Below are positions 3,135 through 62,412 of a stretch of 64,000 nt of DNA, piece after piece. Both the position numbers and the translations under genes were made by a program. The notes under the pieces were generated by a model. It had not been told where the DNA came from. It ran no database searches and was given only the letters and a program-made list of their open reading frames with translations. The DNA is from a virus. Positions within the stretch are counted from its first letter, which is position 1, and each line of letters begins with the position of its first letter. The stretch lies in the IMG/VR virus record IMGVR_UViG_3300028588_000820; one strand, given 5' to 3'.

Positions 3135-3664
3135 TTTTTGATGGCGTTGATGAAGTGGGTAAAAGCACTTTCATCGAAACGCTAAAGATGAATCCGGAAT
3201 GCGTTGGTCGAGTTGTCGAACTGAACTTCCCAAAGCTACTTCCGAGTGGCAAACTGCTACGAATCAACGATGAGAAATCATTTGAGCTTCTGTTTGCAGC
3301 ATTCGACTATCTCAACCCGCATTACACCTACATCCTCGATCGCTTCATCACCTCGAATTTAGTCTACGACAAAGTCTTGCGTGATGAAGACATCAGTGAA
3401 TCACTTCACTACTGGAACGAGTTCCTCACTCGTTTCAATGTTCGCCAATACATCTTCACTCGCCCAGCGATTGATCACGACTTCGTCGATGACAAGATCA
3501 AGATGAGTCGTGACAAGTTCAATGGCTGCATCGAAGAGTACAAGAAGTATGGCACCAATTACATGTTGCTACAGCGCAATGCTACTGGCCAAGTCATCGG
3601 TGTCGACACTGAAATGAAAGCAGCTCTGACTGCCGAAATCGTGTCGTTCATCAACGATGTCTAA
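3116..3664 (+). CDS. dNMP (thymidylate-type) kinase
   Basis: P-loop DGVDEVGKST; LDRFITSNLVY. Confidence 0.8.
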   Translation: MLTKFLIFDGVDEVGKSTFIETLKMNPECVGRVVELNFPKLLPSGKLLRINDEKSFELLFAAFDYLNPHYTYILDRFITSNLVYDKVLRDEDISESLHYWNEFLTRFNVRQYIFTRPAIDHDFVDDKIKMSRDKFNGCIEEYKKYGTNYMLLQRNATGQVIGVDTEMKAALTAEIVSFINDV

Positions 3665-6450: not shown

Positions 6451-6512
6451 CGACTGGCTTGAGTTGTTCCTCAACGAGTCAGTCCTCATACAGAAAAATA
6501 ATATGGAGTTTT

Positions 6513-13150: not shown

Positions 13151-13424
13151 CCAAATCTATATCGCGCTTGACTATGATGACACCTATACCAAGGACCCAG
13201 AGTTCTGGTTGGAGTTCATTAAGAATGCACAAGCGCGAGGTCACATCGTCCGGGTAGCAACCATGCGTTGCTACTGGGAAGATGATATGGACCCGAGGCT
13301 GCTTGCTCTTATCCCAGTAGACTTCTGCTGCGGCAAGGCCAAGAAGATCACGCTAGCACAGCGTGGCCTGCATCCAGACATCTGGATCGACGATCGTCCC
13401 GACTGGATTGTTGGCGACGAATAA
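13134..13424 (+). CDS. HAD-superfamily phosphatase-like protein
   Basis: ALDYDDT, ATMR, WIDD. Confidence 0.7.
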   Translation: MSQSINQIYIALDYDDTYTKDPEFWLEFIKNAQARGHIVRVATMRCYWEDDMDPRLLALIPVDFCCGKAKKITLAQRGLHPDIWIDDRPDWIVGDE

Positions 13425-13449
13425 AAATAAAACTATAAGAATAATAAAA

Positions 13450-14139
13450 ATGACTACCACTACTACGACCACTACCACTACGACTGTTGTTACCCAAACC
13501 ACCACTTCGGCTAAGCAAAAGACTCGCCTGATCTTTGTACTAGATCGTTCGGGCTCGATGGGCGGTATCGCAAATGAAGCAATTGGCGGCTTCAACGCAT
13601 TCGTGGATGGCCAGAAGCAAGTCGAAGGCGAAGCAACTCTGTCTCTAGTGATCTTCGACAATGTCCTAGACACGATCCATGACAATGTGCCGCTGGCAAG
13701 TGTTCCAACTCTCACTAGCGAAATCTATATTCCACGCGGCATGACTTCGCTGTTTGACGCGATCGGTGTTACAATAGCTAAATACCTGGCAGTGCCAACC
13801 GATGAAAATACCAAAACCATTTTCGCAGTTCTAACTGACGGTGATGAGAACTCGAGCAAAGAGTTCTCTGGTAAGGCGGTGGCAGACCTCATCAAGAAGG
13901 TCGAGACCGAGCATCAATGGGAAGTCATGTTCCTAGGTGCGAACATCAATGTGGCTGAAATCGCCACTCAACTAAATGTCCAAACGTCTAAGTTCGCTGC
14001 ATTCGCTGCATCGGGCCGAGGCATTGACGACACCTTCAAATCCGTGAACGCATACGCAACCTCGCTACGTAGTGTTGCAAAAGGTGCCTCACTAGAAACG
14101 ACTCTACAAAGCACCTACGATTCGTTCGCTTCGCAATAA
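13450..14139 (+). CDS. vWA-domain protein with Thr-rich N-terminus
   Basis: DRSGSM, T.LFDAI, LTDGDEN. Confidence 0.9.
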   Translation: MTTTTTTTTTTTVVTQTTTSAKQKTRLIFVLDRSGSMGGIANEAIGGFNAFVDGQKQVEGEATLSLVIFDNVLDTIHDNVPLASVPTLTSEIYIPRGMTSLFDAIGVTIAKYLAVPTDENTKTIFAVLTDGDENSSKEFSGKAVADLIKKVETEHQWEVMFLGANINVAEIATQLNVQTSKFAAFAASGRGIDDTFKSVNAYATSLRSVAKGASLETTLQSTYDSFASQ

Positions 14140-47713: not shown

Positions 47714-47926
47714 ATGAACGACCTCGAACATCAATACTTGTTCGACAAAGTCGTTTCGGCTGCCGCTGAAATGGTTTATGTCGAAGCCAATATCACGTTG
47801 GATGAAGCCAAGAAGCGCGCATCCGATGCTCTGACCGCACTCTGGTCCTATGACCTTTCGCGCAACCTCAACAAGCGAGGTGTAATCGCCGAGCTCACCA
47901 AATCCATTGCAGACCAAATCAAATAA
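47714..47926 (+). CDS. Hypothetical protein
   Basis: CAAAAATAATATG start. Confidence 0.65.
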   Translation: MNDLEHQYLFDKVVSAAAEMVYVEANITLDEAKKRASDALTALWSYDLSRNLNKRGVIAELTKSIADQIK

Positions 47927-47927
47927 T

Positions 47928-49127
47928 ATGAACGCAAAAACTTTGCTTCGAGACTTTGTCTCTTCTATCACGACACCGACAATTCAACGTCGGCAAGTGA
48001 TGGAATACTTCAGCACCAAAGGTGACCTCGAGCGTATGCTCAACATCATCAAGGCGACCTGCGCCGATGCGATCGTATCGACCGAGCCAACCGTGTACAA
48101 CACCGACAAATTCATGAAATGTGTCGAAGCTATCAGCGATGATGCGGTTGCTGCTCCAGCACAACTTGAAGCAAAGCCAGCGTTCAATGTCGTCGATGGG
48201 CGTGCTGATCCGAACCAGCCAGATGTTATCAAAACGGCATCATATCTGGAACTTGAAGAACTGATCGATCCGCAGTACCCGATCAACATCTATGTCACTG
48301 GCGAGACCGGCCTCGGCAAGACGACTTCGATCTTCGCGATCGGCAAGAAGTTCAATAAGCCAGTGGTTCGCGTGAACATGTCCGGCTCCACCGACCTGGA
48401 TGACTTGATCGGCGGTATCCGTATCGTTGATGGCAACACCGTCTTCGATCCTGGTCCAGTCGCTCTTGCAATGGAGATGGGCGCGATCCTTTTGCTTGAC
48501 GAATGCGATGCTGGTAAGCCGCAAGTCATGATCGACCTCCACCCAGTCCTCGAGCGTAAAGGCGTCCTCGCCAAGAAAGCTCGCAAGATGATCTACCCAG
48601 CACCCGGGTTCTGTGTCATCGCAACCGGTAACTCGAAAGGCTCGGGTGATGTAACTGGTAAATACATTGGTGTAAATACCATGAATCACGCGTTCATGCA
48701 ACGCTTCGCCGCCGTTGTAGACTTCATAGCGCCCAATCGTGTTGAGATTGAGCATATCATCAGAGGTAACCAACCGAAGCTCCCTTACTCCGTCCTGGCG
48801 AACCTGTGCAACTGGTATCAGCACGTTCGCGAGTCGTACGAAGCTGGCACCGTATCTGAGTACATCAATGCTCGTAAGATGCAAGACATCGCAGCCATTT
48901 GCATGATCTATCGTGCGAAGAACGGTACCGACACTTGCGTCTTGAAAGCTCTGCGCAAAGCGCTTGCTCAATACGAACAATCGGTGGTCGATGCTCTGGT
49001 TCAACTGTACGACACGATCGTCGAAGACATCGACGAAAAGCAAGCACTGCAAGCGGCATCGGCACCGAGCCAACTTGCATCCGAACCAGCTCGGGTTGAC
49101 GAGACTGGACAGCCAATCCCATTCTAA
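47928..49127 (+). CDS. CobS-like MoxR AAA+ ATPase
   Basis: GETGLGKT, LLLDECD, ATGNSKG, AFMQRF. Confidence 0.9.
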   Translation: MNAKTLLRDFVSSITTPTIQRRQVMEYFSTKGDLERMLNIIKATCADAIVSTEPTVYNTDKFMKCVEAISDDAVAAPAQLEAKPAFNVVDGRADPNQPDVIKTASYLELEELIDPQYPINIYVTGETGLGKTTSIFAIGKKFNKPVVRVNMSGSTDLDDLIGGIRIVDGNTVFDPGPVALAMEMGAILLLDECDAGKPQVMIDLHPVLERKGVLAKKARKMIYPAPGFCVIATGNSKGSGDVTGKYIGVNTMNHAFMQRFAAVVDFIAPNRVEIEHIIRGNQPKLPYSVLANLCNWYQHVRESYEAGTVSEYINARKMQDIAAICMIYRAKNGTDTCVLKALRKALAQYEQSVVDALVQLYDTIVEDIDEKQALQAASAPSQLASEPARVDETGQPIPF

Positions 49128-49370: not shown

Positions 49371-51371
49371 ATGAACAAGAATCTTAAACCTGCAATCTCG
49401 AAGTCCGCTATGATGCTGCGGAACATGTATGACCTGTATGCGAAGATGCTTGCCGTCGAAAACATCCAGGTTGTCTTCGACGAAGCGATCGATGCTCCGG
49501 CGCAGTTCGACATTCTGAACCGAATTCTGTACATCGCGCCGGTTCATGCTACGCAGGTTGAATTGATTCCTGGCCTCGTGATTCATGAAGTCGGTCATGC
49601 TCTGTTCTCGACACTCACGCCAGAAGAACTGAAGAAGCTCAAGCGGATTTCGAAGTTGCTGAACATCATCGATGACGGCTATCAAGAACGAATGATGTGC
49701 AAGAAGTACGCGAACTCCAAGAAGCATTTGTTCACGATCTTCGACCACTTCTTCTTGCAGTTGAAGGAAGATGTTTATAACACGCCTAACAAGCTCGTAA
49801 ACATTGTCAACATCCTGAACTTCAACTGCAAGGGCTTTAAACATGGTCACTACAAAAAGTATCCATCGTATGTCCTTGAAGAGGACGTAAAGCTGCTTCA
49901 AGAGGCAGAGCAAATCGCTTTGCCAAAACTGATTGAACGCGATGAGTTCGCCAAGAAACTTGCACAAGCTTTGAAGAAGTACGGTGATATGGCCGAAGAT
50001 GGTACAGACTTGGATTCCGGGAAAGGAAAAGATTCTAAGTCTGGCCCGACTGACAAAGGCGAGCCAGATGACGCCGATGGTGAATCCGAAGATGGTGAAT
50101 CCGAAGATGGTGAATCCGAAGATGGCGAAAGTGGCGAGAGCGGCGATGATGCGGATGACGAGAGCGACCAGACTGGTGCTGGTGGCAATGGAGCTGCTGA
50201 AGACGATGTCGAAGAAATGCTCGAGAAGAACTCGGACAAGCTGAACGACCATCACAAGAAGTTTGAGCAAAACATGGGCGGCGCCGGGTCCTATGAATTG
50301 CCAACTGGCAAAGAGATTCTGGACTTCAGTCGCGTCATAGACATCTACGAGAAAGATAGTCAGGTTGACAGAGCCATAGCCAATGCCGGTGTGGACATTG
50401 CTGACAAGTATCGTCGTTGCCAGAAAGAGGCGAAACGTGTCGCGACCCAAATCTTCACGAAGTTCAATATGCGCCTTCAAGCGCAGAACTACGCGAACAC
50501 TCAGTTCAAGAAATCTGGTTCGCTTGATCCAGAACGCTGCGCTCTGTACCAAGTCTACGATGACGTCTTCGTCAAAGAAGCAATCGAGCCAAATCAAGTG
50601 AACAACGCTTACTCTGTGATCCTTGACTGGAGTGGTTCGATGAACAGTTCGGTCTATGCTCTGGTCCTCCGGATCATGGAGCTGACCTACTTCGCGAAGA
50701 TGGCCAACGTCGAAATCGAAGTTTGGATGTACACGACCAATGACGGAGCAGTCAGCTACAAGGGATGTCGTCGCAACATCGCTTTGACCAATTCGAAGAT
50801 GATCAAGGTCTTGAATACGAAGCAGCACAATCAGCTCGAGACCGAGACTCGACTGAAGCATCTCTGGTACATCACGCGCACCATCACGAACATGTCGCCA
50901 AAGCTTCAAGGTATTGACGGCTATACGTCGAGATATACCCTTAGCGGAACAAACATCCTTGAGGGCTTGATTCTTGGTCATTATGTTCTGTCTAAGATGG
51001 ACGCTGAGAAGAAGGCTTGCTTCTTGCTTACAGATGGCGATGACACGAGCGTGTTCAACGTTCTGTATCGTGCGGACGGCGGCCCATCCAAGAACTATGC
51101 CCCAGATGCGAAGATTTATTTGCATGGAATCAACGTGTCGCAGGCGTATAAGCGGAACCATGTGCGAGCATCGTCCTCAGCAGCGATAGCAGAGCTTTAC
51201 GCTGCGGCTGGTCAGAAAACTATTGGCATCGCATGGAATTGCCAGGGCGCCGCTATGGATGGCTATGCACACAATGTGATTCGTGTGTCTACCGGCGCGC
51301 AAGTGATTGAAGATGGCTACATCCATGCGCCGAATGTCTTCGTGGACGAAGTCGTCAAAAATTTGCTGTGA
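49371..51371 (+). CDS. CobT-like protein (HExxH domain, acidic linker, vWA)
   Basis: HEVGHA, DWSGSM, LTDG; next to CobS. Confidence 0.85.
   Translation: MNKNLKPAISKSAMMLRNMYDLYAKMLAVENIQVVFDEAIDAPAQFDILNRILYIAPVHATQVELIPGLVIHEVGHALFSTLTPEELKKLKRISKLLNIIDDGYQERMMCKKYANSKKHLFTIFDHFFLQLKEDVYNTPNKLVNIVNILNFNCKGFKHGHYKKYPSYVLEEDVKLLQEAEQIALPKLIERDEFAKKLAQALKKYGDMAEDGTDLDSGKGKDSKSGPTDKGEPDDADGESEDGESEDGESEDGESGESGDDADDESDQTGAGGNGAAEDDVEEMLEKNSDKLNDHHKKFEQNMGGAGSYELPTGKEILDFSRVIDIYEKDSQVDRAIANAGVDIADKYRRCQKEAKRVATQIFTKFNMRLQAQNYANTQFKKSGSLDPERCALYQVYDDVFVKEAIEPNQVNNAYSVILDWSGSMNSSVYALVLRIMELTYFAKMANVEIEVWMYTTNDGAVSYKGCRRNIALTNSKMIKVLNTKQHNQLETETRLKHLWYITRTITNMSPKLQGIDGYTSRYTLSGTNILEGLILGHYVLSKMDAEKKACFLLTDGDDTSVFNVLYRADGGPSKNYAPDAKIYLHGINVSQAYKRNHVRASSSAAIAELYAAAGQKTIGIAWNCQGAAMDGYAHNVIRVSTGAQVIEDGYIHAPNVFVDEVVKNLL
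50076..50125 (+). repeat. 15-bp tandem repeat x3.3 (DGESE)
   Basis: GATGGTGAATCCGAA repeated exactly. Confidence 0.9.
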
Positions 51372-51421: not shown

Positions 51422-51871
51422 ATGTCTATCACAGATAACCGTAAAGCTCGACATGACTATCACATCGAAGATCGTGTCGAAGCCGGCATCATGCTTCAAG
51501 GCTGGGAGGTTAAGGCGATTCACGCCAAACAAATCTCGCTGCAAGAAGCGTACGTGATCAGCAAGAATGGTTCGTTGCATCTGTTGGGTGCAACTATCAC
51601 CCCGCTGATCCAGGCGTCCTCGCACATCGCTAAGGAACCTAGCCGTACTCGTCAGCTGCTCTTGCATAAGAAAGAAATCGAGAATCTGACCGAGAAGGTC
51701 AAGCGCGCTGGCTACACCCTGGTGCCACTCAACATGCATTACAAGGATGGCAAGATCAAGTTGGAAATCGGTCTCGCCAAAGGCAAGAAACAACACGACA
51801 AGCGTGATGCTCAACAAGAGCGTGACGTCAAGCGCGACATCGATCGCGCAATGAAAGGCCACTGTGAGTAA
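51422..51871 (+). CDS. smpB: SsrA-binding protein SmpB
   Basis: NRKARHDY, EAG..L.GWEVK, RTR.LLLHK.EI, GYTLVPL, AKGKKQHDKR. Confidence 0.96.
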   Translation: MSITDNRKARHDYHIEDRVEAGIMLQGWEVKAIHAKQISLQEAYVISKNGSLHLLGATITPLIQASSHIAKEPSRTRQLLLHKKEIENLTEKVKRAGYTLVPLNMHYKDGKIKLEIGLAKGKKQHDKRDAQQERDVKRDIDRAMKGHCE

Positions 51872-52133
51872 GAAATATGACGGCGATGGCGTCATCGTTA
51901 AGTACGACGGTGCGCCATACGACAGTGAGTACCACTATCTCGTTGATATCGGGTACTTCGGTAAGATCATCAACCTTCGCACTTATGCAAAGGAGCCACG
52001 TCCACTTACCATGAACGGCAAGCATGTGGTATCTCGCTGGGTTGCATGCGCGATGATCGATGTGATCAAAGAGCAGTTTCCTCATGAGAACTTCAACTAC
52101 CTCGTGATCGAAAATGAACCAAACATTCTTTGA
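51864..52133 (+). CDS. Hypothetical protein
   Basis: Overlapping GTG start. Confidence 0.5.
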   Translation: MSKKYDGDGVIVKYDGAPYDSEYHYLVDIGYFGKIINLRTYAKEPRPLTMNGKHVVSRWVACAMIDVIKEQFPHENFNYLVIENEPNIL

Positions 52134-52317
52134 ACATGCAATGAAGATCATTGACAACCTGACCGATGAAGAAATCTTCAACGGCTTGGTTAAAGCTGGC
52201 TTTGATCCAGACAGCATCACCATTCGCCAATATCCTGAAATGCCTGAGGGCTATGATCCTCAGGCCAAAGCACCACCGCAAACATTCCCGTTCCACGAAC
52301 CGCTGTTCTGCGGATAA
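52114..52317 (+). CDS. Hypothetical protein
   Basis: Packed ORF. Confidence 0.5.
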   Translation: MNQTFFEHAMKIIDNLTDEEIFNGLVKAGFDPDSITIRQYPEMPEGYDPQAKAPPQTFPFHEPLFCG

Positions 52318-52342
52318 CTTAAATTCCAAACACAAAAATAAT

Positions 52343-52657
52343 ATGGGTACTGTCAATATCAACGGCAAAATCTATCAGGGCAACAACATCGAAATCAACG
52401 GCAATAAGATCATCATCGACGGCGTCGAGCGGCGCGAAGATGTGAGCGGTGTCGTTGAAGTCCGTATCATGTCTGGTGAACCAGTCAATGTTTCAAGCGA
52501 CGCTTCGATTACTTGCAACAACGTGAAGGGCAATCTCTCCGCTGGCGGCAGTGTCAATTGCGATGATGTTGGTGGCAATGTGAGCGCTGGCGGCTCGGTC
52601 AATTGTGACAATATCGGCGGCAACGTAAGCGCTGGTGGTTCGGTGCGCTATGGCTGA
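52343..52657 (+). CDS. Beta-helix repeat protein
   Basis: GNVSAGGSVNCD repeats x3. Confidence 0.75.
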   Translation: MGTVNINGKIYQGNNIEINGNKIIIDGVERREDVSGVVEVRIMSGEPVNVSSDASITCNNVKGNLSAGGSVNCDDVGGNVSAGGSVNCDNIGGNVSAGGSVRYG

Positions 52658-52853
52658 TAAGCCAGAACCGTACAAGATGGAAGGCCACAATTTCGCCTAC
52701 GTGGTGCGCGGTACTGCCTATCGGTATTGCGTGACCTGCGGCCTAGTGGCCTTCAAGAACGAGCTGACGCGGTGGGCGATTGATAAAGGTTGCAACTACA
52801 AAGATCACCCAAGCTACAAGAACAAACTGTCCATCACCAATCCATTCCTATGA
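52650..52853 (+). CDS. Small zinc-binding protein
   Basis: H...CVTCGL...GC. Confidence 0.6.
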   Translation: MADKPEPYKMEGHNFAYVVRGTAYRYCVTCGLVAFKNELTRWAIDKGCNYKDHPSYKNKLSITNPFL

Positions 52854-53128
52854 ACAAAAAAATTACTGTGCTTGAAGTCAAGCAAGGTGACAAAATCAAG
52901 TATGTTGGGCCGTATGAATACGGTTATCGTCCTGAGCTTGTCGACTCGATCCTCGGCGCTGGCGACTTCACGAATAGCCCATCGGGAACATTCGGTCATC
53001 TCGGTGGTGCATTCCGTTTGCCAACCGATAAGGTATTTGCCTTCTCGGCCATTTCGGTCGACTCAATCGAAATGGTTGAAGTTGAGCTTACTGCGACCGA
53101 AGTATCTCGTAAATCAGTACGTCCGTAA
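52850..53128 (+). CDS. Hypothetical protein
   Basis: Coupled ORF. Confidence 0.55.
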   Translation: MNKKITVLEVKQGDKIKYVGPYEYGYRPELVDSILGAGDFTNSPSGTFGHLGGAFRLPTDKVFAFSAISVDSIEMVEVELTATEVSRKSVRP

Positions 53129-53275
53129 TGGACTATAAATAAAATTGGTGTATAATTCACCAACACGACTTTTAAAAGGAACTTTAAGTACTTTAATCAT
53201 TTTTCATAAAACAGAGTAATTCGCGATGTAATTCGTGTGTTACCTTTAACGCTAAACGTGAAAGGAGAGCTACGT

Positions 53276-53965
53276 ATGAAAACGACATTATTTTTGCTGT
53301 CAACTATTGTCACATTAATTCTGTCTTCGGTAACAGTCAATGAACTAAACATTCATGAGAAAGTTACGAAACACGGGACTGCGGTCATTGCCGCAAAAAC
53401 ACATATTAAAGGTGGAGACAAGAATGTTTTAATTCTTCCTCCGAATTTAACCGCAAAGCAGGCTGAAAACCTAACCTACGCATATCGTGTAGCAAAGGAA
53501 GATGGCCACAAACATCCAGAGTACTACCAAGGACTGATTTACCAAGAGTCCAAAGCAGGCGGTATGAAGGGCTATGCGGTTGCCGGTCAAGAGTTTGGTT
53601 TGAAACCCATGGAGCGATACTATGGAGTCCCGCAAATCAAGCTAGGCGCAACCAAAGATGTCCTTAAAAAGTATCCAGTCCTTGGGGCATTTAGGACCGA
53701 TGAGGAAATCATCGCCAAGCTTATCTACGATGATAAGTGGGCGATCCGAGTTGGAAGTAAATATTTTAAGATGGTCGGGGAGAGCCCAGTTGCCTACAAC
53801 AAAGGTCCTTCGGGAGCTAAAGGTGTCGACCCATCCACAAACGATTATGCGATCAAAGTCGCTAATCACGTAAGAACTGTAGTAAAATCTGTCAACGGCA
53901 GGAACATGTCTTCGCTGAAGCTGTTCAATGGTAAAGCCGACAAGCAGTTAGCATCAGCCCTCTGA
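53276..53965 (+). CDS. Lysozyme-like/lytic transglycosylase with N-terminal signal anchor
   Basis: QES, YGVPQI, AYNKGP; TATAAATA at 53134; AAGGAG SD. Confidence 0.75.
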   Translation: MKTTLFLLSTIVTLILSSVTVNELNIHEKVTKHGTAVIAAKTHIKGGDKNVLILPPNLTAKQAENLTYAYRVAKEDGHKHPEYYQGLIYQESKAGGMKGYAVAGQEFGLKPMERYYGVPQIKLGATKDVLKKYPVLGAFRTDEEIIAKLIYDDKWAIRVGSKYFKMVGESPVAYNKGPSGAKGVDPSTNDYAIKVANHVRTVVKSVNGRNMSSLKLFNGKADKQLASAL

Positions 53966-54016: not shown

Positions 54017-54559
54017 ATGTCTAATCAAAAGCCACGCTTTGGCGTCTTTTTGGCGCTAACATTCGAAGACGAAATTTACAAGGACTACCCTCAAGTCTGT
54101 CCGACGATTCAAAATCACAAGTTCCAGAATCTCCTGATCACGCTACGTGAAGACGGCTACTTCGGTTTCCTTGGTGGTTCGGCCGATGAAGGCGAGACGG
54201 AACTCCAGGCATTGGTACGTGAGTGCAAGGAAGAAGGCAACATCGACCTGGCATGGTTGCTGTCTGTTTTGCCTCCAGACGCCCTGTCGCGTTCCTGCGA
54301 ACACACGCTCAACGATGGGTATAAGGTCATCTTGTACCATTTGCGAATCACCAAGCATCTGGCAAAGAACATCATTCGTAACTCGGTCAACGCGCCTCAC
54401 TTCTTTGTCGAGACCGCAGGCATTGTCAGCGTTGCAATCCACAACAAATCCTCGTTCCATCAAAACAAATTCTTGTCGTGCATGGGAGATGAATTCAAGG
54501 AAGTCGCGAAGCTGATCGACTCCACCATCCTCGACACATGGGGTAATCTAATCGAATGA
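54017..54559 (+). CDS. Nudix hydrolase
   Basis: GGSADEGETELQALVRECKEEGN. Confidence 0.85.
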   Translation: MSNQKPRFGVFLALTFEDEIYKDYPQVCPTIQNHKFQNLLITLREDGYFGFLGGSADEGETELQALVRECKEEGNIDLAWLLSVLPPDALSRSCEHTLNDGYKVILYHLRITKHLAKNIIRNSVNAPHFFVETAGIVSVAIHNKSSFHQNKFLSCMGDEFKEVAKLIDSTILDTWGNLIE

Positions 54560-55548
54560 ACATGAATACTGACATGGAAGCTCTTATCAAGCAAAGTGTC
54601 AGGTTCGAAGGTCGTTCAAAAGGTTGGGAGCATTGCAAATGCAAGGTTTGCAATGACTATAAGGTTCGTGCTTCATTCGCATTCGAAGACGACCGCATCA
54701 AGTACAACTGCTTCAACTGCGGTCTATCGCAGTCCTACAAACGAGGCAGCACCTTCATGGCGCAGGAGTTCAGAGACATCCTCCATGCGTACACCATCAC
54801 CGACAACGACATCGACCTGATCCTCGGTAAGAACTTCTTCAATAAGGACGTCATCACCCTGGCGAAGAAGAAGGCCGAAAGTAAGATCGCCGAAGTAGAA
54901 CTACCTCCCAATTGCTATCCGATCCCTGACGTCGATCCTGACGATATGTGGACAATCGTAGCAAAAGAATACCTCGAAGAACGAGGACTATCCCTACAAG
55001 ATCATACGTGGTATTTGTCGACACATTTAGAATATCGCGATCGGCTCGTCATTCCCTACTACAAGGACGGAAAGGTGATATATTGGCAGGCGAGGTCATT
55101 TGATGACAACGCCAAAAAGCGATACATCAACCCTAACGTCCCAATCGAACCTATTCTTTTCGGGTATGAGGAATTAGAAAAGTCCGCTCAACAACCGCTG
55201 TTCATTATGGAAGGTGTCTTTGACGCTATCTCCATTGGTGGTGTGAGTATGCTTGGCAGTAAACTGTACAAGCAGAGGATCGATGCCTTTACTCGTAGTC
55301 GTCGACGCAAAATCTTTGTGATCGACAAGAAGGATAAGCAAAACAACGGATACAAGTTAGGCGTTGACGCTTTGAAGAACGGATGGGAGATTACATTCGT
55401 ATCTGGCGCTGACACCAAGGACGTCAATCATAGTGTTAGTAAATACGGCAAGCTATGGACGATCCAGAATCTAATGGAAAACGCCTGTGGTGGATTTGAA
55501 GCTCAAGTAGCTTTAGAAACGATTTGCAAGAATCACGCCGTCAAGTAA
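54556..55548 (+). CDS. DNA primase (gp61-like)
   Basis: CKVC..CFNC zinc, IPY, YWQAR, EGVFDA Toprim. Confidence 0.9.
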   Translation: MNMNTDMEALIKQSVRFEGRSKGWEHCKCKVCNDYKVRASFAFEDDRIKYNCFNCGLSQSYKRGSTFMAQEFRDILHAYTITDNDIDLILGKNFFNKDVITLAKKKAESKIAEVELPPNCYPIPDVDPDDMWTIVAKEYLEERGLSLQDHTWYLSTHLEYRDRLVIPYYKDGKVIYWQARSFDDNAKKRYINPNVPIEPILFGYEELEKSAQQPLFIMEGVFDAISIGGVSMLGSKLYKQRIDAFTRSRRRKIFVIDKKDKQNNGYKLGVDALKNGWEITFVSGADTKDVNHSVSKYGKLWTIQNLMENACGGFEAQVALETICKNHAVK

Positions 55549-55571: not shown

Positions 55572-56873
55572 ATGAATATTGAGAAGCAGCGTTTGCTGAT
55601 TTCTTATTTGTCTTCGGACAGCGATTTGTTTGCCCGCTGCAATGCAATCGTCGATCCGAACTATTTTGATCCAGAAGTTCGTCATTCAGTTCACTTCCTA
55701 AAGGAGTACTACGAAACCTATCGTGCGCTGCCATCTGCTGAGCAGATTAGCGCCGAGACTGGCAATCACTTCGCGGCACGTCCGCTGACAAAGACAGAAA
55801 TCGAGTATGGTCTACGTGAAGTAGAAACGTATTGCCGAAACAAGGCAATCGAAAAAGCAATCTTGGCATCACCTAAACTCCTTGATAAGGGTGACTTCGA
55901 CAAGATTCTGGTCAACATGAAAGATGCAATTTCAGTGGCCATCAACCGTGAATTGGGTTTGGATTACTTCGCCAATCCTGAGGAACGTCTAGCCAGAATG
56001 CTTCAAATGAATGCATTGATTCCAACTGGCTACAAGGAACTGGACGAATTCCTGAATGGTGGTATCTCTCGTAAAGAGTTGCTGCTGTTTATGGCAGGTT
56101 CAGGCGTTGGTAAGTCGATCTTTATGTCAAACATCGCCATCAACTTCCTGATGCAGAAGCTTAACGTGTGCTACATCACGCTAGAGCTAGCTGAAGAGGT
56201 CGTTGCAAAGCGTTTTGACACGATGATCACCGGTATCGGTCAAAAAGAAATCTTTGACAAGATGTCGAAAGTCCACGCAGAACTTGAGCAACTGCGCCCA
56301 CAAATGGGTAAGCTGTTTATCAAGCGTATGCCAGAGAGTACCACGAATGCTAACCACATTCGTGCATACCTCAAAGAGTTCGAGATGATCCATGGCTTCC
56401 TACCAGATGTCATCGTCGTCGACTACATGGACCTAATGACCTCGAATCAGAAAATCTCGGCCGAGAACCTATTCGTGAAAGACAAGTACGTTGCTGAAGA
56501 GCTACGTTCGATCGGCAACGAATACAATCTGCTGATGGTAAGTGCATCACAGATGAACCGTGCAGCAATTGGCGCAGATGACATCGACCAAAGTAATATC
56601 GCTGGTGGTCTATCGAAGATCAACACCTGCGACAACTTGATCGCTATTATCCAAACCGATGCAATGAAAGCAGCTGGCGAATACATGCTGAAGCTAGTCA
56701 AAACTCGTAACTCGGGTGGTGTTGGCAAAGTGATGATGTTACGCTGGAGCCCTGTTTCATTGCGTGTCACCGACCTTGACCATAGAGATAAGGACAAGAT
56801 CGAATTCGTACGAAGCGATGATGCTAAGAAGGGTAAGAAGAAAGACTTACTCGACCTAATGAAAGACGTTTAA
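55572..56873 (+). CDS. Replicative helicase (gp41/DnaB-like)
   Basis: AGSGVGKS, ITLEL, VVDYMD, ASQMNR, KTRN. Confidence 0.93.
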   Translation: MNIEKQRLLISYLSSDSDLFARCNAIVDPNYFDPEVRHSVHFLKEYYETYRALPSAEQISAETGNHFAARPLTKTEIEYGLREVETYCRNKAIEKAILASPKLLDKGDFDKILVNMKDAISVAINRELGLDYFANPEERLARMLQMNALIPTGYKELDEFLNGGISRKELLLFMAGSGVGKSIFMSNIAINFLMQKLNVCYITLELAEEVVAKRFDTMITGIGQKEIFDKMSKVHAELEQLRPQMGKLFIKRMPESTTNANHIRAYLKEFEMIHGFLPDVIVVDYMDLMTSNQKISAENLFVKDKYVAEELRSIGNEYNLLMVSASQMNRAAIGADDIDQSNIAGGLSKINTCDNLIAIIQTDAMKAAGEYMLKLVKTRNSGGVGKVMMLRWSPVSLRVTDLDHRDKDKIEFVRSDDAKKGKKKDLLDLMKDV

Positions 56874-56883
56874 GGATACCATA

Positions 56884-58749
56884 ATGGAAAATAATATTTT
56901 GAAGCTGGATGGCATGGAAAAGATCGAGTCGGACAAGGCAGTTTACCTGCCGTCGAAGAGCCGCCTCACTACCGAAAGCGAACTCGCCAAAGAGAAACGC
57001 AAATCGCCATTCGACTTCTTCAAACTGCCGAAGGATGCAACCATTCGGTTCCTGCCAGACAGCACCGGTCCGCTGACCACGTCAAGGGACTATCTTAGCC
57101 GGTATGTCGACGTCTACAGTATGTATAACATCGCTGAAGACTGCGTCATCACTCCGCTGGACATGAGTGGCTCAATGGCCAGCGCAGTCACCGAAACCGG
57201 CAGGGAAGCTGTTCGCAAAATCATGGATGATTACCTGAAACATGCGAAAGGTATGAAGTCTCTGTACTACACCCGTTCGTCCAAGCCGGTTGATCCGATT
57301 ATCACCATCGACTCGCTGAGCATGATCGTCGACTCGATGAAGACCTACCGCGAGGAAGAAGCGACCGATACGCTGCGCATGAAAATCCTGAAGGATCGTG
57401 ACCATCGCCAAGCTGAAGGCTGCTTCTACGCCCCGTACATCCCAGAAGGTCTTGGCAAGAACGAGTACAAAGTAGTGGAGCCGATCGGGTCGACCGACAC
57501 TCTGTCGAAGGAAGAATTCACGGCCGAGCCACGAGACCTGGCTCAAAACAATCTGTGCCAAGAAATCCATGATCACATGATCAACCTCGAGGTCAGCTTC
57601 GACTTTCCGCTGAAAGGTAAGAAAGTCAATCCTTTCATCTGGGACATGGACATCAACTGCTTGTACGATCGAGTCAGCCCCGTTTTCGACATTGAAAAGC
57701 CGCTGAATCCATGTAATGAAATCCCACTGGGCAAGCCGATGAACGGAGTAATGTTCGACAGTGATGTGGACCTGACGCAGAACGAAAATTGGAAGTCGTG
57801 GTTCGAGACGAACACCAACTGCAACTTCTTCGACGCCGAAACCACCTTCGTCCGGCTACCAACAACCATCACCACTGGCAACGACTACCTGGACATCTTG
57901 TTTGGCAATGGACTGAAGCCTGGATCGGTGACCTTAATCGCAGGTCAGGCAGGCCTCGGCAAATCGGCACTGGCTAAGAACGCAGCTGCTGGTCTGTCGG
58001 TGAATGGCACCGAGTTCCTGTACGTGACCGTTGAAGAATCTGCAGACAAAGTTATCGAACGCATTCAAGCTCTGAACAACCACAACGTCGATACGAACTA
58101 CAAAGTCGTTCGTGCTGGCGATTGGTGCCTCAATGGCCTGATCAACCTGATTCGTGAAGAGACTGAAGACCTGGCAAATCCACGCGTTGTGATCGTCGAC
58201 GGACTGGACTTCTTCAAAGATGCTGGTGCGCATATCCTGGGACGCCAACTGCGTACCCTCGCTATGGACCTCGATGTCGCAATCGTCGGCACCAATCAGC
58301 TGGCTCGTGCTAGTAAATACGACATCAAGCCGCTACTGCCAAGTGGTGACTATGGTCTGCTGGCTGAAGTCGATGCTGCGGTTGCAATCACTCGCAATGG
58401 TTGCGAAACTGAACTGTCGATCATGAAGAATCGTCACAGCCACACCAATGCCAAGTTCTTGTTCGATGCAGGTAGCAACCTGATCTGGGAGCCACTGAAG
58501 GTCGCTGCGGTGAATACCGAAGTGTTCGAATGCACCTTCCCGAAGCAAAGCGAAGGACGCGGTTCACGCGTTACCGAGTTGCCAGGAGGCAACGCAGAAG
58601 TGATGGAAATTGCTGACATCGAATTCTTCAAAGGTAAGCTTCTGACGAATCTGAAAATGCCAGTCTCGAAGAAAGTAACCTTCGCTGACCTGAAAGCAGC
58701 ATTCGCTCCAAAGGTCGAACCAGACTACCCAGTCGCCGACTGGCTCTAA
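56884..58749 (+). CDS. Second DnaB/RecA-fold ATPase with N-terminal motif-mosaic region
   Basis: C-half: TGNDYLD, GQAGLGKS, VTVEES, IVDGLD, TNQLAR, KNRH; N-half described in findings. Confidence 0.8.
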   Translation: MENNILKLDGMEKIESDKAVYLPSKSRLTTESELAKEKRKSPFDFFKLPKDATIRFLPDSTGPLTTSRDYLSRYVDVYSMYNIAEDCVITPLDMSGSMASAVTETGREAVRKIMDDYLKHAKGMKSLYYTRSSKPVDPIITIDSLSMIVDSMKTYREEEATDTLRMKILKDRDHRQAEGCFYAPYIPEGLGKNEYKVVEPIGSTDTLSKEEFTAEPRDLAQNNLCQEIHDHMINLEVSFDFPLKGKKVNPFIWDMDINCLYDRVSPVFDIEKPLNPCNEIPLGKPMNGVMFDSDVDLTQNENWKSWFETNTNCNFFDAETTFVRLPTTITTGNDYLDILFGNGLKPGSVTLIAGQAGLGKSALAKNAAAGLSVNGTEFLYVTVEESADKVIERIQALNNHNVDTNYKVVRAGDWCLNGLINLIREETEDLANPRVVIVDGLDFFKDAGAHILGRQLRTLAMDLDVAIVGTNQLARASKYDIKPLLPSGDYGLLAEVDAAVAITRNGCETELSIMKNRHSHTNAKFLFDAGSNLIWEPLKVAAVNTEVFECTFPKQSEGRGSRVTELPGGNAEVMEIADIEFFKGKLLTNLKMPVSKKVTFADLKAAFAPKVEPDYPVADWL

Positions 58750-58765
58750 TAATAACAAGGAAAAC

Positions 58766-59011
58766 ATGACTACTGAAACCACCCAAAACGTCGTTACCAT
58801 CAACGGCAAAGAGTACGAAATCGCCAATCTGTCTGACACTGCAAAAAGTCTGCTGCAGATTTTTAACCAGTGGCAGAACGAGCGTGATGAATCAGCCACC
58901 GCCCTAACCAAGGCGAAGGTTGAGCTGGCAAAGAACGAGGCAGCACTACGTGACTTGTCCCGCGAAATCGTCGAGCTAATCGAGAACGAAGAAGCCGCAC
59001 CAGCTGCCTAA
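58766..59011 (+). CDS. Small conserved coiled-coil protein
   Basis: VTINGKEYEI..LSD.AK; AAGGA SD. Confidence 0.75.
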   Translation: MTTETTQNVVTINGKEYEIANLSDTAKSLLQIFNQWQNERDESATALTKAKVELAKNEAALRDLSREIVELIENEEAAPAA

Positions 59012-59056: not shown

Positions 59057-59098
59057 CGTATCCGATAAATATTCGTGAACCCATACATAGACATCATC

Positions 59099-60838
59099 AT
59101 GCCATCACAATCATTTAAAGATTATCTCGACGACAACGATTACAAGCCAACGCTGAAATCAAAGTCTAAGTCGATCGAATACCTAGAAGACCTCAGCGTC
59201 AAAGACTTCATCGATGCTATCCGCAATCTTCACAAAAGCATCGTGGCCGAAAAGCTAGACGGTACCGCATTGACATTCGGTCTTGACGATGATGGCGAGT
59301 TTTATACCACTCGCTCTGGCAAAGGCAGTTCGGACAAGCTATGCTACAAAGCTGCTGACTGGGGCATCTCCGCCGCATCGAATGGCTTCAAGGCCACTCA
59401 CGCTGCGTTGAAGAAGCATTTGGAAACCATTAAGACGGTGATGCAACCAGGTGAAGCGATGGACGTGGAAATCATGTTCGGTCGTCAACCAAATACCATC
59501 GTCTACGGCCTCGATGGCTACAACTACATCGCGTTCCTCAAATCCACTCCGGGCACCAATAAAGAATTGAAGGTCGATCAAAAGAAAGTCAAGAAGCTTT
59601 TCAACAAGCTGAAGGATGAAACTTCTGACGTCCGCACTATCAACGTCGATACAACCGATGGCGAGAACCTGGTCCAAGCACCGACTGTCACCAATTGGAA
59701 ATTTACCACCCCAGAATTCATTGACACTAAGCACTTCGAAGACTCTGACGTTAAGGCAGAACTCGAAAAGCTTGAGAAGTTTCTCAACAAGAGAAATGAC
59801 AAGATGTCTGACATTCTAAATCGTGATGTCACCAACTTCGAAGCGGCTCAAGTCCCATTGACCGATGTTCGTACTGCAATTCGCAGTCAAGCTAAAGCAG
59901 CAAAAGAGGACATCAACGATGCGATCATGAACAAATACAAGTTGCCAATCAAGCAGACATTGCTTGACAAATTTGTCCGTACGGTGAAGCCACGTTTGCA
60001 AGATCGCGATGTTGAGCCAGCGGAAGACTTGGGCATGGAAGGTATTGTCGTTCTTGATCCTAAGACACAGAAACAGTTCAAGATCGTAGACAAAGAAACC
60101 TTCACCACTTTGAACCGTTTCAACTACGAGGTCCGCAATAACATTCGTGGCGTTGTTCGCTCCGAAGATGAAGATGCTCCATTGAACCTGCGTGGCGGTT
60201 TGCTCGGCACTGCTAAGATTCGCATCGCTCGCTTGTTCAACATGCCAGGTCTCGGCAAAGGTTACACCACTAAGAAGGTCATCGCGAAGTTCAAAGGCGC
60301 TAATGCTGATGAGACTGTTGCAAACCTAGCACAATCGCTACAAGATGCTGATTGGAGAGCTTACAAGGAAAAGATCAACGCGATTATCGTTGACACTTTG
60401 AAAGAGCTTCAAGAGGCATTGGATAACTTCAAAGAGAATTTCCACGATTACAAAGTCAAGTTGGAAAGCGGTAAAGAAGTTGGCTACACACAAGAGGTTG
60501 TTCGTCGTACACTTCTAGTGTTTGCCGAGACTCGTCAATCTTTGAAGCGTATGCAAAGCAAGATCGACGAAGCTCAGGGCATGGAAGACATCATCGTCGG
60601 TATGTTCGGCAAATCGATTAAGCAACTATTCGGTGACACGCCTGAGGCCGGAGAGGACTCAATCACCGAAGATGAAGGTGGAGCTGGAGAACCAGTCGGT
60701 ACCGTCTCCCCTTTGGGCCCTGGTACGTTCAGCGGTGCCATTGCTCCACTACCGAAGCGTTTGTTCCCTGGCAAGATGATCCGTCGCATTGTCAAGACCG
60801 GCGTGAAGGTAAAGCGCAAAAAGAAGTCAAATAAATAA
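59099..60838 (+). CDS. Late protein with RNA/DNA-ligase-type nucleotidyltransferase motifs
   Basis: EKLDG, EGIVV, FKIVDK; GATAAATA at 59064. Confidence 0.6.
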   Translation: MPSQSFKDYLDDNDYKPTLKSKSKSIEYLEDLSVKDFIDAIRNLHKSIVAEKLDGTALTFGLDDDGEFYTTRSGKGSSDKLCYKAADWGISAASNGFKATHAALKKHLETIKTVMQPGEAMDVEIMFGRQPNTIVYGLDGYNYIAFLKSTPGTNKELKVDQKKVKKLFNKLKDETSDVRTINVDTTDGENLVQAPTVTNWKFTTPEFIDTKHFEDSDVKAELEKLEKFLNKRNDKMSDILNRDVTNFEAAQVPLTDVRTAIRSQAKAAKEDINDAIMNKYKLPIKQTLLDKFVRTVKPRLQDRDVEPAEDLGMEGIVVLDPKTQKQFKIVDKETFTTLNRFNYEVRNNIRGVVRSEDEDAPLNLRGGLLGTAKIRIARLFNMPGLGKGYTTKKVIAKFKGANADETVANLAQSLQDADWRAYKEKINAIIVDTLKELQEALDNFKENFHDYKVKLESGKEVGYTQEVVRRTLLVFAETRQSLKRMQSKIDEAQGMEDIIVGMFGKSIKQLFGDTPEAGEDSITEDEGGAGEPVGTVSPLGPGTFSGAIAPLPKRLFPGKMIRRIVKTGVKVKRKKKSNK

Positions 60839-61755: not shown

Positions 61756-62412
61756 ATGGACAAGTTTAACTATCCGAACATTGATACTGTCAACTACAAT
61801 GGACAGCGCTGGTACTCATGTGAGGAGGGTGTTGCGTACCCAAGTATCACGACGATTCTTGGGTTCACAATGCCAGAAGAAAAGAAGAAGAGCTTAGAGA
61901 ACTGGCGTACAATGTTGGGCCCAATCGTCGCTGAAAAGAAGATGAAGCAGGCTACGACACGTGGTACGCACGTTCACGAAATGCTCGAACAGTTCCTCAA
62001 AGGTGAGCCGGTCAAAACGGCTGGCATTCCACCAGAGGACATCGATGTCTTCAACTCACTCAAACTAAGCCTTCGTGGCATCACAGAAATCTACGGCCAA
62101 GAGATGGCCTTGTACTCTGACGTTTTGCAAGTTGCAGGCCGTTGTGACTTGGCTGGACGTTGGAAGGGTGAAGAAGCGATCATCGACTTCAAAACATCCG
62201 GTCGCTTCAAAGAAGAAAAAGAGATTCAAGACTATTGGGTCCAATGTGCATTTTATGCACTAGCTCACAATGAACAGTACGGAACGAACATCGAGAAGGG
62301 CGTGATCCTAATGGGTGTTGCTGGTGGCCTACCACAAGTCTTCGTAAAGGACTTGATGCCATATGTTTCGATCCTAGTTGAGCGAATCGAGAAATTCTAC
62401 AATTCACTGTAA
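61756..62412 (+). CDS. PD-(D/E)xK exonuclease (Cas4/RecB-like)
   Basis: YPSITTIL, RGT.VH, AGRCD, IIDFKTS, Q..FY. Confidence 0.88.
   Translation: MDKFNYPNIDTVNYNGQRWYSCEEGVAYPSITTILGFTMPEEKKKSLENWRTMLGPIVAEKKMKQATTRGTHVHEMLEQFLKGEPVKTAGIPPEDIDVFNSLKLSLRGITEIYGQEMALYSDVLQVAGRCDLAGRWKGEEAIIDFKTSGRFKEEKEIQDYWVQCAFYALAHNEQYGTNIEKGVILMGVAGGLPQVFVKDLMPYVSILVERIEKFYNSL

Follow-up and report, generated by a model that had tools for sequence, protein, structure and literature searches.

Short look-alikes of phage core proteins flank a RecA-type ATPase in a RsoM2USA-like jumbo phage

The mosaic gene

The window of this study is a stretch of 64,000 nucleotides (nt) of the IMG/VR virus record IMGVR_UViG_3300028588_000820, which itself comprises 103.6 kb and is estimated to be 30% complete. 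The virus is a RsoM2USA-like jumbo phage from soil. Its nearest deposited genome is that of the 344-kb Ralstonia phage RsoM2USA, with 53% identity in the DNA polymerase and 47% in the helicase. An open reading frame (ORF, 56884-58749), which starts 10 nt past the stop codon of the gene for the DnaB-type replicative helicase (55572-56873), is the subject of this paper; we refer to its product, P0001, as the mosaic protein. A preliminary description of this DNA, made from the sequence alone, had seen here a string of signature peptides from unrelated core phage proteins fused to a second helicase domain. This anatomy was confirmed, in that a string of look-alikes of unrelated core proteins accompanies an ATPase of the RecA/DnaB type, and it extends further to the C-terminal tail, where a portal block and a gp32 helix are found. 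The peptides quoted in the description all occur in the ORF (ATIRFLPD at amino acid (aa) 52, which corresponds to nt 57037, YVDVYSMY at 57103 and DMDINCLY at 57643). Their counterparts in other genes of the window are real as well, namely GSVDINSLYPS and ASTTATGR in the polymerase, LDWSGSM and LDRSGSM in the vWA proteins and FPLKGKPLN in the topoisomerase.

The two flanks of the ATPase (325 aa on the N-terminal and 75 aa on the C-terminal side) match no family from end to end. What they contain are short local matches to unrelated core proteins, and these pieces are short in-frame, diverged copies of about 10-55 aa. Judged from sequence and profile comparisons, the pieces assigned to the portal protein, to gp32 (a strand block and the N-terminal helix), to gp23 and to the Toprim loop of topoisomerase II are well supported. 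They are arranged around the ATPase core as follows (SSB, single-stranded-DNA-binding protein):

56884..58749, + strand: whole ORF (P0001), 621 aa, stop codon included
56995..57075, + strand: gp32 (SSB) block 1, aa 38-64, KRKSPFDFFKLPKDATIRFLPDSTGPL; gp32 consensus YPFWKMPxDxxAVVRFLPDADEDNP
57391..57453, + strand: gp23 major-capsid block, aa 170-190, KDRDHRQAEGCFYAPYIPEGL; compare KGGDGETDTGYFYCPYIPLES
57595..57663, + strand: topoisomerase II (Toprim) block, aa 238-260, FPLKGKKVNPFIWDMDINCL; own topoisomerase FPLKGKPLNVNDIETKKL
57859..58521, + strand: RecA-superfamily ATPase core, aa 326-546, with Walker A GQAGLGKS, catalytic Glu, Walker B VVIVDG, TNQ and KNR
58525..58683, + strand: portal block in the C-terminal tail, aa 548-600, SEGRGSRVTELPGGNAEVMEIADIEFFKGKLLTNLKMPVS
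58675..58746, + strand: copy of the gp32 N-terminal helix and C-end EPDYPVADWL, aa 598-621, TFADLKAAFAPKVE

Pieces resembling gp32, gp23, topoisomerase and portal proteins

The gp32 block 1 was recovered when a profile of the N-terminal half was aligned with 92 gp32 sequences by hhalign (aa 42-64, 23 columns, E 2.6e-5, probability 75%), in agreement with the earlier assignment of ATIRFLPD to a gp32-type SSB. With our own gp32 hidden Markov model (HMM) P0001 and its orthologue P0003 rank straight after the true gp32 proteins and above 2000 shuffles and about 860 natural proteins; the 8-mer scores of the block are 30-32. The mosaic protein does not belong to the gp32 SSB family itself. Pfam gives no match to PF08804, the own HMM of 120 gp32 sequences matches at positions 19-49 only (9.7 bits), and neither the OB-fold core nor the zinc subdomain is matched, which leaves a fragment.

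The gp23 block, quoted in the preliminary description as GCFYAPYIP, was likewise found by hhalign against 120 gp23 sequences (aa 170-187, KGG..GYFYCPYIP, 18 columns, E 5.6e-5, probability 66%). Its 8-mer score is 36, and 7 of the 8 core residues are invariant. Two of the orthologues, P0005 (E 0.009) and P0004 (E 0.02), give partial matches to the Pfam family Gp23, both below the cut-off and in the same region of the profile (~289-329). Membership in the gp23 capsid family (PF07068) was rejected, as the match is a fragment and the HK97-type fold is not matched.

A profile of five topoisomerase sequences aligns with aa 241-260 (FPLKGKPLNV..D.., E 7.7e-5, probability 62%), which supports the topoisomerase assignment made earlier for FPLKGK. 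This hexapeptide is identical to that of the phage's own topoisomerase gene (6459-8405), and the codons differ, as had been noticed before, at three third positions only.

The portal block exceeds a curated Pfam cut-off. It matches Portal_T4 (PF07230) with E 1.3e-5 and 24.6 bits against a cut-off of 22.9 bits, in 43 of the 433 positions (260-302), and also phrog_213; the hhalign E-value is 6.8e-5. In comparison with the RsoM2USA portal protein a Smith-Waterman z of 8.5 and a blastp E-value of 0.002 were obtained, and RsoM2USA fits better than T4. Phage portal genes are also found by tblastn of the mosaic protein. Three IMG/VR contigs (L016-L018, match 3001-3237) carry unrelated environmental phage portal genes that are 29-32% identical to aa 514-596, and these matches provide another confirmation that the tail block stems from a portal protein. 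Since the full fold of 433 positions is not matched, the block is a fragment, and the mosaic protein is no T4-like portal protein.

The last 24 residues begin with TFADLKAAFAPK, while the gp32 proteins of this clade start with ..LADLASAFASK.. or ..KALQAAFAPK... Aligned with residues 1-15 of gp32 the tail gives an hhalign E-value of 0.0024. The helix copy and the C-end are invariant in all four orthologues and form the most conserved part of the family.

In general the copies resemble the lineage of the phage itself. The portal block is closer to RsoM2USA, FPLKGK equals the own topoisomerase, and the C-terminal helix is of the clade's gp32 type. That the pieces seem restricted to the most conserved blocks of their parents may partly reflect detectability, because the record lacks most of the phage's own parent genes, so that copies of less conserved parts would stay invisible.

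Excess over chance

The genomes used for comparison in the motif tests were T4 and nearly all of RsoM2USA. A hallmark set of 443 T4 8-mers was chosen without the mosaic protein; each of them scores at least 30 (BLOSUM62) in homologues from RsoM2USA or from the phage itself. In the N-terminal half 9, 5, 4 and 3 hallmark clusters are present at scores of at least 24, 26, 28 and 30, respectively. Shuffled sequences contain 2.0, 0.8, 0.3 and 0.1, with none of 1000 shuffles reaching the observed numbers, and the maximum in 114 natural 325-aa segments without T4 homologues is 5, 4, 3 and 1. The five best hallmark scores sum up to 152, compared to 116.9+-6.5 in shuffles and a maximum of 139 in natural windows. 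The motif rate, whose comparison with shuffled sequence had been proposed in the preliminary description, therefore exceeds 19,999 of 20,000 shuffles as well as all 247 natural controls. The orthologues reach top-5 sums of 152 (P0003), 160 (P0004) and 138 (P0005). The other five reading frames of the same DNA contain at most one hallmark cluster, which is the background level.

A similar result was obtained with profiles. When the alignment of the N-terminal half was compared with 18 core-family alignments by hhalign, six gave E<0.02, whereas 16 column-shuffled controls never gave more than one. Nine core families that nobody had claimed for the protein remained at E 0.09-0.8. When 8-mers were compared with the own 103-kb proteome, matches were no more frequent than in shuffles; most of the parent genes are missing from that record.

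Orthologues and evolution

Searches of 5.8 billion clustered proteins and 1.8 billion representatives identified only four members of this family, which all come from soil or environmental metagenomes and have the same gene order. The syntenic orthologues of P0001 are P0003 (71% identity), P0004 (45%) and P0005, which has a shorter N-terminal half. Among further related contigs there was one 36-kb contig with the P0003 form only, and no cognate capsid, portal or SSB genes were recovered. Neither megablast nor tblastn revealed an orthologue in deposited phages, the ATPase and the portal block giving partial matches only. RsoM2USA is without the mosaic gene and has two small unrelated ORFs instead, RsoM2USA_440 and RsoM2USA_439, annotated with 108 and 125 aa; they are located between the helicase and the RNA-ligase-like gene (L002 7591-8297).

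Primase and helicase share 95-98% identity with those of the related contigs L014 and L013, at a nonsynonymous divergence (dN) of 0.01-0.035 and dN/dS ratios (omega) of 0.04-0.06. The corresponding values of the mosaic gene are 74% and 53% identity, 30 and 100 gap columns, dN of 0.18 and 0.41 and omega of 0.24-0.30, and its dN is 8-12 times that of the helicase. The N-terminal half (omega 0.22-0.23), the ATPase and the tail show similar values. An island at aa 176-232 has a dN of 0.09-0.14 at a synonymous divergence (dS) of ~1.1, which corresponds to omega 0.08-0.12. The mosaic gene is under purifying selection, yet it is changing about ten times faster than its neighbours.

The alignment of orthologues, also suggested in the preliminary description, revealed that modules were gained and lost. 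P0005 has kept the N-terminus, the MIDAS-like piece, the gp23 piece, the ATPase and the gp32-helix end, and is without the gp32 strand block, the RNR pieces, the topoisomerase piece and the portal block (MIDAS, metal-ion-dependent adhesion site; RNR, ribonucleotide reductase). In P0003 and P0004 the portal block has an internal deletion. The cores of the four strongest motifs are nevertheless more conserved than their surroundings: 26 of 32 residues (81%) are invariant in P0001, P0003 and P0004 against 106 of 293 (36%) elsewhere (P 1.5e-6). For all twelve quoted cores the numbers are 52/96 and 80/229 (P 0.002). The look-alikes are thus more frequent than expected by chance, they are confined to the coding frame, and selection at the peptide level maintains them. 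With its rapid change, its turnover of modules and its occurrence in some relatives only, the gene fits the pattern of a conflict or accessory gene.

The RecA-type ATPase core

The second helicase domain of the preliminary description proved to be only half correct. It is of the RecA/DnaB type, but its identity to the neighbouring helicase is ~20%, the DnaB N-domain (PF00772) is matched nowhere in the mosaic protein by Pfam or PHROGs, and by its sequence the domain is best described as a RecA-type ATPase core (DnaB-C/RadA/KaiC-like) and not as a helicase. Pfam matches to the KaiC-type ATPase (E 7e-10) and to DnaB_C (E 3e-9) are both above the cut-off, the latter with 37.3 bits against 27 and in profile positions 2-107 only. 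The core also matches phrog_19 (E 7e-20), and hhalign aligns it with the gp41-type helicase family over 217 columns (97% probability, E 4e-11); the N-terminal half gives E 0.25 with the same family. Walker A, the catalytic Glu, Walker B, TNQ and KNR are invariant among the orthologues, and the ATPase is probably active.

More specific assignments were rejected. The NCBIfam models of RadA, KaiC, ArlH and RadB match far below their cut-offs. The phage DnaB model TIGR03600 gives 31.5 bits against 498.65 and TIGR00665 21.1 against 385; without the N-terminal helical domain and without a full-length family match the protein is not a DnaB-like replicative helicase. It is not a RadA/Sms protein either. 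TIGR00416 gives 43.6 bits against 403 and covers the P-loop region only, the motif reads KNRHS instead of KNRFG, and the zinc finger (PF18073) and the Lon-like domain (PF13541) have no match, unlike in the true RadA proteins P0007-P0009.

Weaker and unassigned pieces

The following segments of the N-terminal half are of weaker or no assignment:

56884..56994, + strand: family-specific N-terminus, aa 1-37 (LDGMEKIE...YLPSKSRLTT), conserved in all four orthologues
57103..57159, + strand: possible gp32 block 2, aa 74-92, YVDVYSMYNIAEDCVITPL; gp32 consensus VPCLSMYGExCPIC
57136..57237, + strand: vWA-type strand, MIDAS motif D93-x-S95-x-S97 and following helix, aa 85-118
57235..57276, + strand: weak RNR large-subunit C-terminal YY block, aa 118-131, KGMKSLYY vs YGIKTLYY
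57289..57363, + strand: UvsX/RecA Walker-B-type block, aa 136-160, PIITIDSLSMIVDSMKTY; compare VLIALDSLDMLITDTENEH
57439..57516, + strand: most conserved island of the N-terminal half, aa 186-211, KNEYKVVEPIGSTDTLSKEEF, near-invariant in P0001, P0003 and P0004
57517..57567, + strand: RNR catalytic-loop look-alike, aa 212-228, QNNLCQEI vs SNLCxEI

Three of these, the vWA MIDAS segment, the UvsX Walker B segment and the RNR catalytic loop, may be regarded as weaker candidates for copied pieces. The vWA piece aligns with the CobT-like vWA protein of the window (hhalign E 2.4e-3) and with a vWA protein of 258 aa (E 0.012), and D93, S95, G96, S97 and M98 are invariant. The UvsX block gives an hhalign E-value of 0.012, and P0004 matches the RsoM2USA UvsX by Smith-Waterman with a Gumbel P of 0.008. 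As to the two RNR loops named in the preliminary description, NNLCQEI is one of these weaker candidates (8-mer score 31; E 0.005 over 10 columns against 82 NrdA sequences; 8 of 8 residues invariant), but NPCNEIPL was indistinguishable from chance. The RNR YY block scores 29 as 8-mer against the RsoM2USA NrdA, with an hhalign E-value of 0.1 only; in P0004 the corresponding YPIKNMYY scores 34 against T4 YGIKNFYY.

Other readings of the preliminary description did not survive. YVDVYSMY, taken for region II of a PolB polymerase, found no support as such; aa 74-92 may instead represent the gp32 zinc-finger block, as seen in an alignment by eye with the gp32 consensus and the RsoM2USA gp32; none of the programs listed this match by itself. 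DMDINCLY had been given the same polymerase origin, and DMDINCL turned out to continue the topoisomerase block in the profile alignment. SAVTETGR, compared with the TATGR peptide of the polymerase, falls in the helix after the MIDAS motif. The putative arginine finger MKILKDR and the exonuclease motifs FDIE and FDAETT are individually indistinguishable from chance. Two further peptides, ENWKSWFE and GVMFDS, match T4 gp60 and gp20 and are not conserved among the orthologues. For aa 1-37 there is no family match and no source could be assigned; the same is true for the source of the island aa 186-211, and tblastn of aa 170-240 found nothing.

Gene neighbourhood

The operon contains, in this order, a Nudix hydrolase, the primase, the helicase, the mosaic gene, a coiled-coil protein of 81 aa and an RNA-ligase-like protein. 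As read from the sequence, the mosaic gene has a ribosome-binding site of its own:

56872..56876, + strand: ribosome-binding site AAGGA, overlapping the helicase stop codon (56871-56873), 7 nt before the ATG

Because this site is good and no promoter or terminator consensus was found between the helicase gene and the mosaic gene, the latter probably shares a transcript with the genes for Nudix hydrolase, primase and helicase. Within the 103.6-kb record it is present in a single copy. PADLOC gave just a marginal P-loop match (mad8) for the mosaic protein, which is therefore no known defence component.

The NUDT16-like Nudix hydrolase (54017-54559, Pfam PF22327, E 1e-8) overlaps the primase start (54556-55548) by 4 nt, and a Nudix gene is found next to the primase in the relatives L013 and L014, too. 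About 2.6 kb upstream of the Nudix gene these relatives encode an SmpB-like protein (PF01668; L013 899-1348 and L014 254-703), and L014 946-1119 shows a weak match to ribosome modulation factor. Pfam detected neither of the two in four scanned ORFs of at least 50 aa in 51864-53962 of the window. Directly after the mosaic gene follows the 81-aa coiled-coil protein (58766-59011, weak DUF6447 match), which is 85-90% identical in the relatives and always accompanies the mosaic gene. The next protein (59075-60838, 587 aa) has a weak RNA-ligase nucleotidyl-transferase match and a lysine-rich C-end and appears to correspond to RsoM2USA_438. A PD-(D/E)XK nuclease (61756-62412, E 7e-8) is encoded further downstream. 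The contig of P0005 (Logan SRR23086401) carries at 479-1102 a GIY-YIG homing-endonuclease gene of the LEM-3 type on the opposite strand between primase and helicase. Among the relatives it is found in this neighbourhood only there, and its presence means that mobile endonucleases are active in the neighbourhood. Elsewhere in the window a CobS/MoxR-like AAA+ ATPase (47907-49127) adjoins the CobT-like vWA protein of 666 aa (49371-51371, LDWSGSM), and a second small vWA protein (LDRSGSM) is encoded at 13363-14139. Both are genuine vWA proteins and served as comparators.

Molecular mimicry as a possible function

Our preferred reading, to which we assign a probability of roughly 40%, is that the mosaic protein is a lineage-specific, fast-evolving accessory protein of RsoM2USA-like jumbo phages, which would act by molecular mimicry. 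The copied blocks would serve as docking or bait peptides, several copies of which would be presented by an oligomeric ATPase, and they would engage the normal contacts that these blocks have in the proteins of origin. Support is best for one piece, the gp32 N-terminal helix copied at the C-terminus, which might dock the ATPase on SSB-coated DNA. In T4 the N-terminal helix of gp32 lies in the B-domain, which is required for co-operative gp32 binding. The other pieces could be decoys for host factors that target core phage proteins, or could interfere with related phages.

For the tail a complex prediction was made with the gp32 core (P0014 17-240, alignment of 92 rows) and aa 587-621. It gave a score of 0.59, whereas the best of three controls gave 0.02; the runs agree in at least 57% of contacts, and the pLDDT (predicted local distance difference test) of the partner is at least 56. 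The mark used for such scores is reached by 58 of 80 solved complexes and by 2 of 110 mismatched pairs; at scores of 0.60 or under it is reached by only 7 of the 80 solved complexes and by both of the passing mismatches. The predicted docking of the tail on the gp32 core is a hint and not evidence of binding.

Several observations weigh against mimicry. Four or five blocks only are individually significant; NrdA, UvsX and vWA are weak, and no support was obtained for the PolB and exonuclease motifs, the arginine finger or the second NxCxE. Loose windows (score of at least 24) are no more conserved than the rest of the N-terminal half (42/94 against 90/231, P 0.38). The portal block, which is the strongest piece, is dispensable in orthologues. 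In the parent proteins many of these blocks (RNR loop, Walker B, Toprim loop) are catalytic or core strands hidden in the interior and are not known as surfaces of interaction. The cognate gp32, gp23 and portal genes are absent from the 103-kb record, and relatives had to be used to judge the sources. What Avs sensors recognise are conserved folds of core proteins and not short peptides (PMC13581612), and it is doubtful whether unfolded pieces of 10-50 aa imitate the folds that are sensed; they may not. Finally, a vWA-like fold in the N-terminal half, as suggested by a structure model, may turn several of the pieces into ordinary elements of a single domain.

A single vWA domain as a possible alternative

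The last point leads to the main alternative, which we consider somewhat less probable than mimicry. The N-terminal half (~aa 85-315) would be one diverged vWA (MIDAS) domain, which together with the RecA-type ATPase would form an ordinary two-domain protein of an adaptor- or chaperone-like kind, following the same logic as pairs of a vWA protein and an ATPase. Most signature peptides would then be normal strands and loops plus a few chance resemblances, and true foreign pieces would be confined to the tail. This bears on the claim of the preliminary description that the N-terminal part has no single recognisable domain. The claim holds for libraries, as no end-to-end match was obtained in Pfam, PHROGs, NCBIfam or PDB sequences, but a low-confidence ESM Atlas model does resemble vWA folds. 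Of the ten structures nearest to this model (aa 84-325) nine are vWA-type folds. DxSxS at 93-97 is invariant, and T/S161 (+68) and D205 (+112) are conserved and near the usual MIDAS spacing of integrin I-domains. The conserved island with KVVEPIGSTD would be strand 4 with the MIDAS aspartate D205. In the PDB the profile of the N-terminal half reaches the vWA domains of ITIH1/ITIH4 first (E 0.36-0.61), and in hhalign the own vWA proteins are matched at the MIDAS strand.

On the other hand the Atlas model is poor (model pLDDT 0.43, TM-scores 0.28-0.37), and an AlphaFold2 model made from the alignment of four sequences is unusable with a mean pLDDT of 30. The Pfam models VWA, VWA_2 and CoxE match none of the orthologues even at E 10, and single-sequence searches of the PDB with the N-terminal halves of P0001 and P0004 found no vWA match. 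The matches to vWA proteins end after the first strand, the MIDAS motif and one helix, and the second half of the putative domain is missing from P0005. A vWA domain would also leave unexplained the gp23, topoisomerase and gp32 matches at E < 1e-4 and the excess over the 247 natural windows. If the domain is real, the MIDAS motif, the TETGR helix, ITIDSL and MKILKDR could be elements of it, with the capsid and topoisomerase look-alikes placed in its loops. The vWA reading is compatible with a version of the mosaic in which pieces are grafted on a scaffold.

Other single-domain explanations were rejected. A degenerate duplicate of the ATPase has an hhalign probability of 0.4%. For an end-to-end UvsX/RecA domain P0001 reaches z 4-6, yet its two alignments are out of register with each other, and z stays at <= 3.3 in the orthologues; PHROG and Pfam models of RecA/UvsX match the C-terminal half only, and what remains is the Walker-B-type piece. 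A phmmer search of the N-terminal half against the 1.8 billion representatives found the orthologues and one spurious repeat protein (P0010) only. Pfam searches with ten overlapping 45-aa windows of the N-terminal half gave nothing, the HMMER filters being too strict at that length.

Decoys, competition, chance and DNA-level functions as proposed explanations

Bacterial STAND sensors detect the major capsid protein, the portal, DNA polymerase and helicase/RecA-type ATPases (PMC13581612), and a decoy role of the mosaic protein would fit this. A more specific idea, which we consider unlikely, is a poly-epitope decoy against multiple targets, in which an oligomeric ATPase would display those blocks of the phage's SSB, capsid, portal, topoisomerase and nucleotide enzymes that can mutate least. 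Such a mimic would intercept host factors (immune sensors, proteases or modifiers), or it would dock onto the parent proteins and regulate them.

Less probable still is that the pieces are dominant-negative or co-aggregating peptides directed against related phages in co-infection, with the ATPase as a scaffold, and that they spoil the SSB, capsid, portal and enzymes of the rival during assembly or folding. A rapidly evolving gene with changing modules would fit such a role, and so would sources that are self-assembling proteins (gp32, gp23, portal, UvsX). The weak docking predicted for the tail on the gp32 core might equally reflect the capping of an SSB filament, and the homing endonuclease in the neighbourhood of one relative indicates competition between phages. 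However, copies that resemble the own lineage would hit the own proteins too, and several of the sources are monomeric catalytic loops and not interfaces.

It is very improbable that the resemblances are chance products, a kind of pareidolia, in a fast-evolving and partly disordered linker of an accessory ATPase. Some peptides (FDIE, FDAETT, MKILKDR and ENWKSWFE) are indeed individually no better than chance, the 8-mer test against the own partial proteome showed no excess, and similar match densities can be reached by chance in small ORFs. But a top-5 sum that is reached by 1 of 20,000 shuffles and by 0 of 247 natural windows, six families at E<0.02 against at most one in 16 shuffled controls, a portal block above the curated Pfam cut-off and gp32, gp23 and topoisomerase matches that deeper profiles sharpened to E < 1e-4 speak against it, and for the whole set of pieces chance is already rejected.

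The least probable explanation is the one in the preliminary description that saw in the string a record of captured DNA snippets or a decoy array mimicking homing-endonuclease and intein sites. In the form considered here, the snippets of conserved genes would have been captured at breaks and the frame would be kept only to avoid polarity: conserved motifs are typical targets of T4 seg/mob endonucleases and inteins, and the contig of P0005 has its GIY-YIG gene between primase and helicase, yet the look-alikes occur in the coding frame only with the five other frames at background, amino acids are conserved while synonymous sites are saturated, the DNA identity to the own topoisomerase and polymerase genes does not go beyond what the common peptides demand, and no Hint, intein or endonuclease domain was found in or next to the gene within the window (Pfam, PHROGs, NCBIfam). 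Because of the frame, the peptide kept at saturated synonymous sites and the limited DNA identity a function at the DNA level, including that of recombination templates, is unlikely.

The sensing of core proteins by bacterial immune receptors extends to the majority of the conserved core proteins in tailed phages (PMC13581612), and the mosaic protein unites copies of invariant blocks from several such targets. If the mosaic protein is a decoy, it would represent a new principle of counter-defence, of a poly-epitope kind undescribed for phages, and its pieces would be a source of probes for what sensors and host factors recognise. If it is a docking adaptor, the phage would build partner-binding modules by copying pieces of its own proteins, with the copy of the SSB cooperativity helix as best candidate. 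In either case short local matches to multiple families, which are missed by domain searches, can be detected and tested statistically.

Comparison with known systems

A full-text literature search revealed no description of such a protein in phages. With gp41 (PF03796, phrog_19) and RadA/Sms the mosaic protein shares the RecA-fold core, Walker A and B, the catalytic Glu and KNR; unlike these it has no DnaB N-domain, zinc finger or Lon-like domain and stays far below every NCBIfam equivalog cut-off. The CobS/CobT-like pair of the same phage (47907-51371) has in common with it the DxSGSM MIDAS motif with the following helix and the association with an ATPase, and the T/D spacing may fit. However, the ATPase of that pair is of the AAA+/MoxR type and that of the mosaic protein of the RecA type, and its putative vWA part is interrupted by capsid and topoisomerase look-alikes and truncated in P0005.

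Small proteins that resemble a segment of another protein and are postulated to be decoys are annotated in T4 as Srd and Srh (NC_000866 annotation), but these are decoys of host sigma factors and not of the phage's own proteins. The phage protein DSAD1, an inhibitor of DSR2, competes with a conserved structural protein, the tail tube, for the binding site on the immune sensor (PMC11087589). This is the same kind of decoy action as proposed for the mosaic protein. The abstract of that study does not present DSAD1 as a derivative of the tail tube (PMC11087589), and for the mosaic protein a competition for a sensor is only a proposal.

The closest known system are accessory ORFs of Bodo saltans virus, which consist of in-frame fragments of the virus' own essential proteins together with an unrelated domain and evolve fast; the function suggested by the authors, that of decoys of host factors, is a hypothesis (PMC5871332). 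Fragments of essential proteins in frame, an unrelated carrier and fast evolution are thus common to both systems. Bodo saltans virus is, however, a giant virus of a eukaryote, its ORFs have an ankyrin-repeat carrier with fragments of catalytic domains at the 5' end, and they are present in 148 tandemly duplicated copies at the genome ends (PMC5871332), while the mosaic gene has a single copy inside a replication operon. In the mosaic protein the carrier is a RecA-type ATPase, and the pieces are much shorter and come from at least 5-8 parents per polypeptide.

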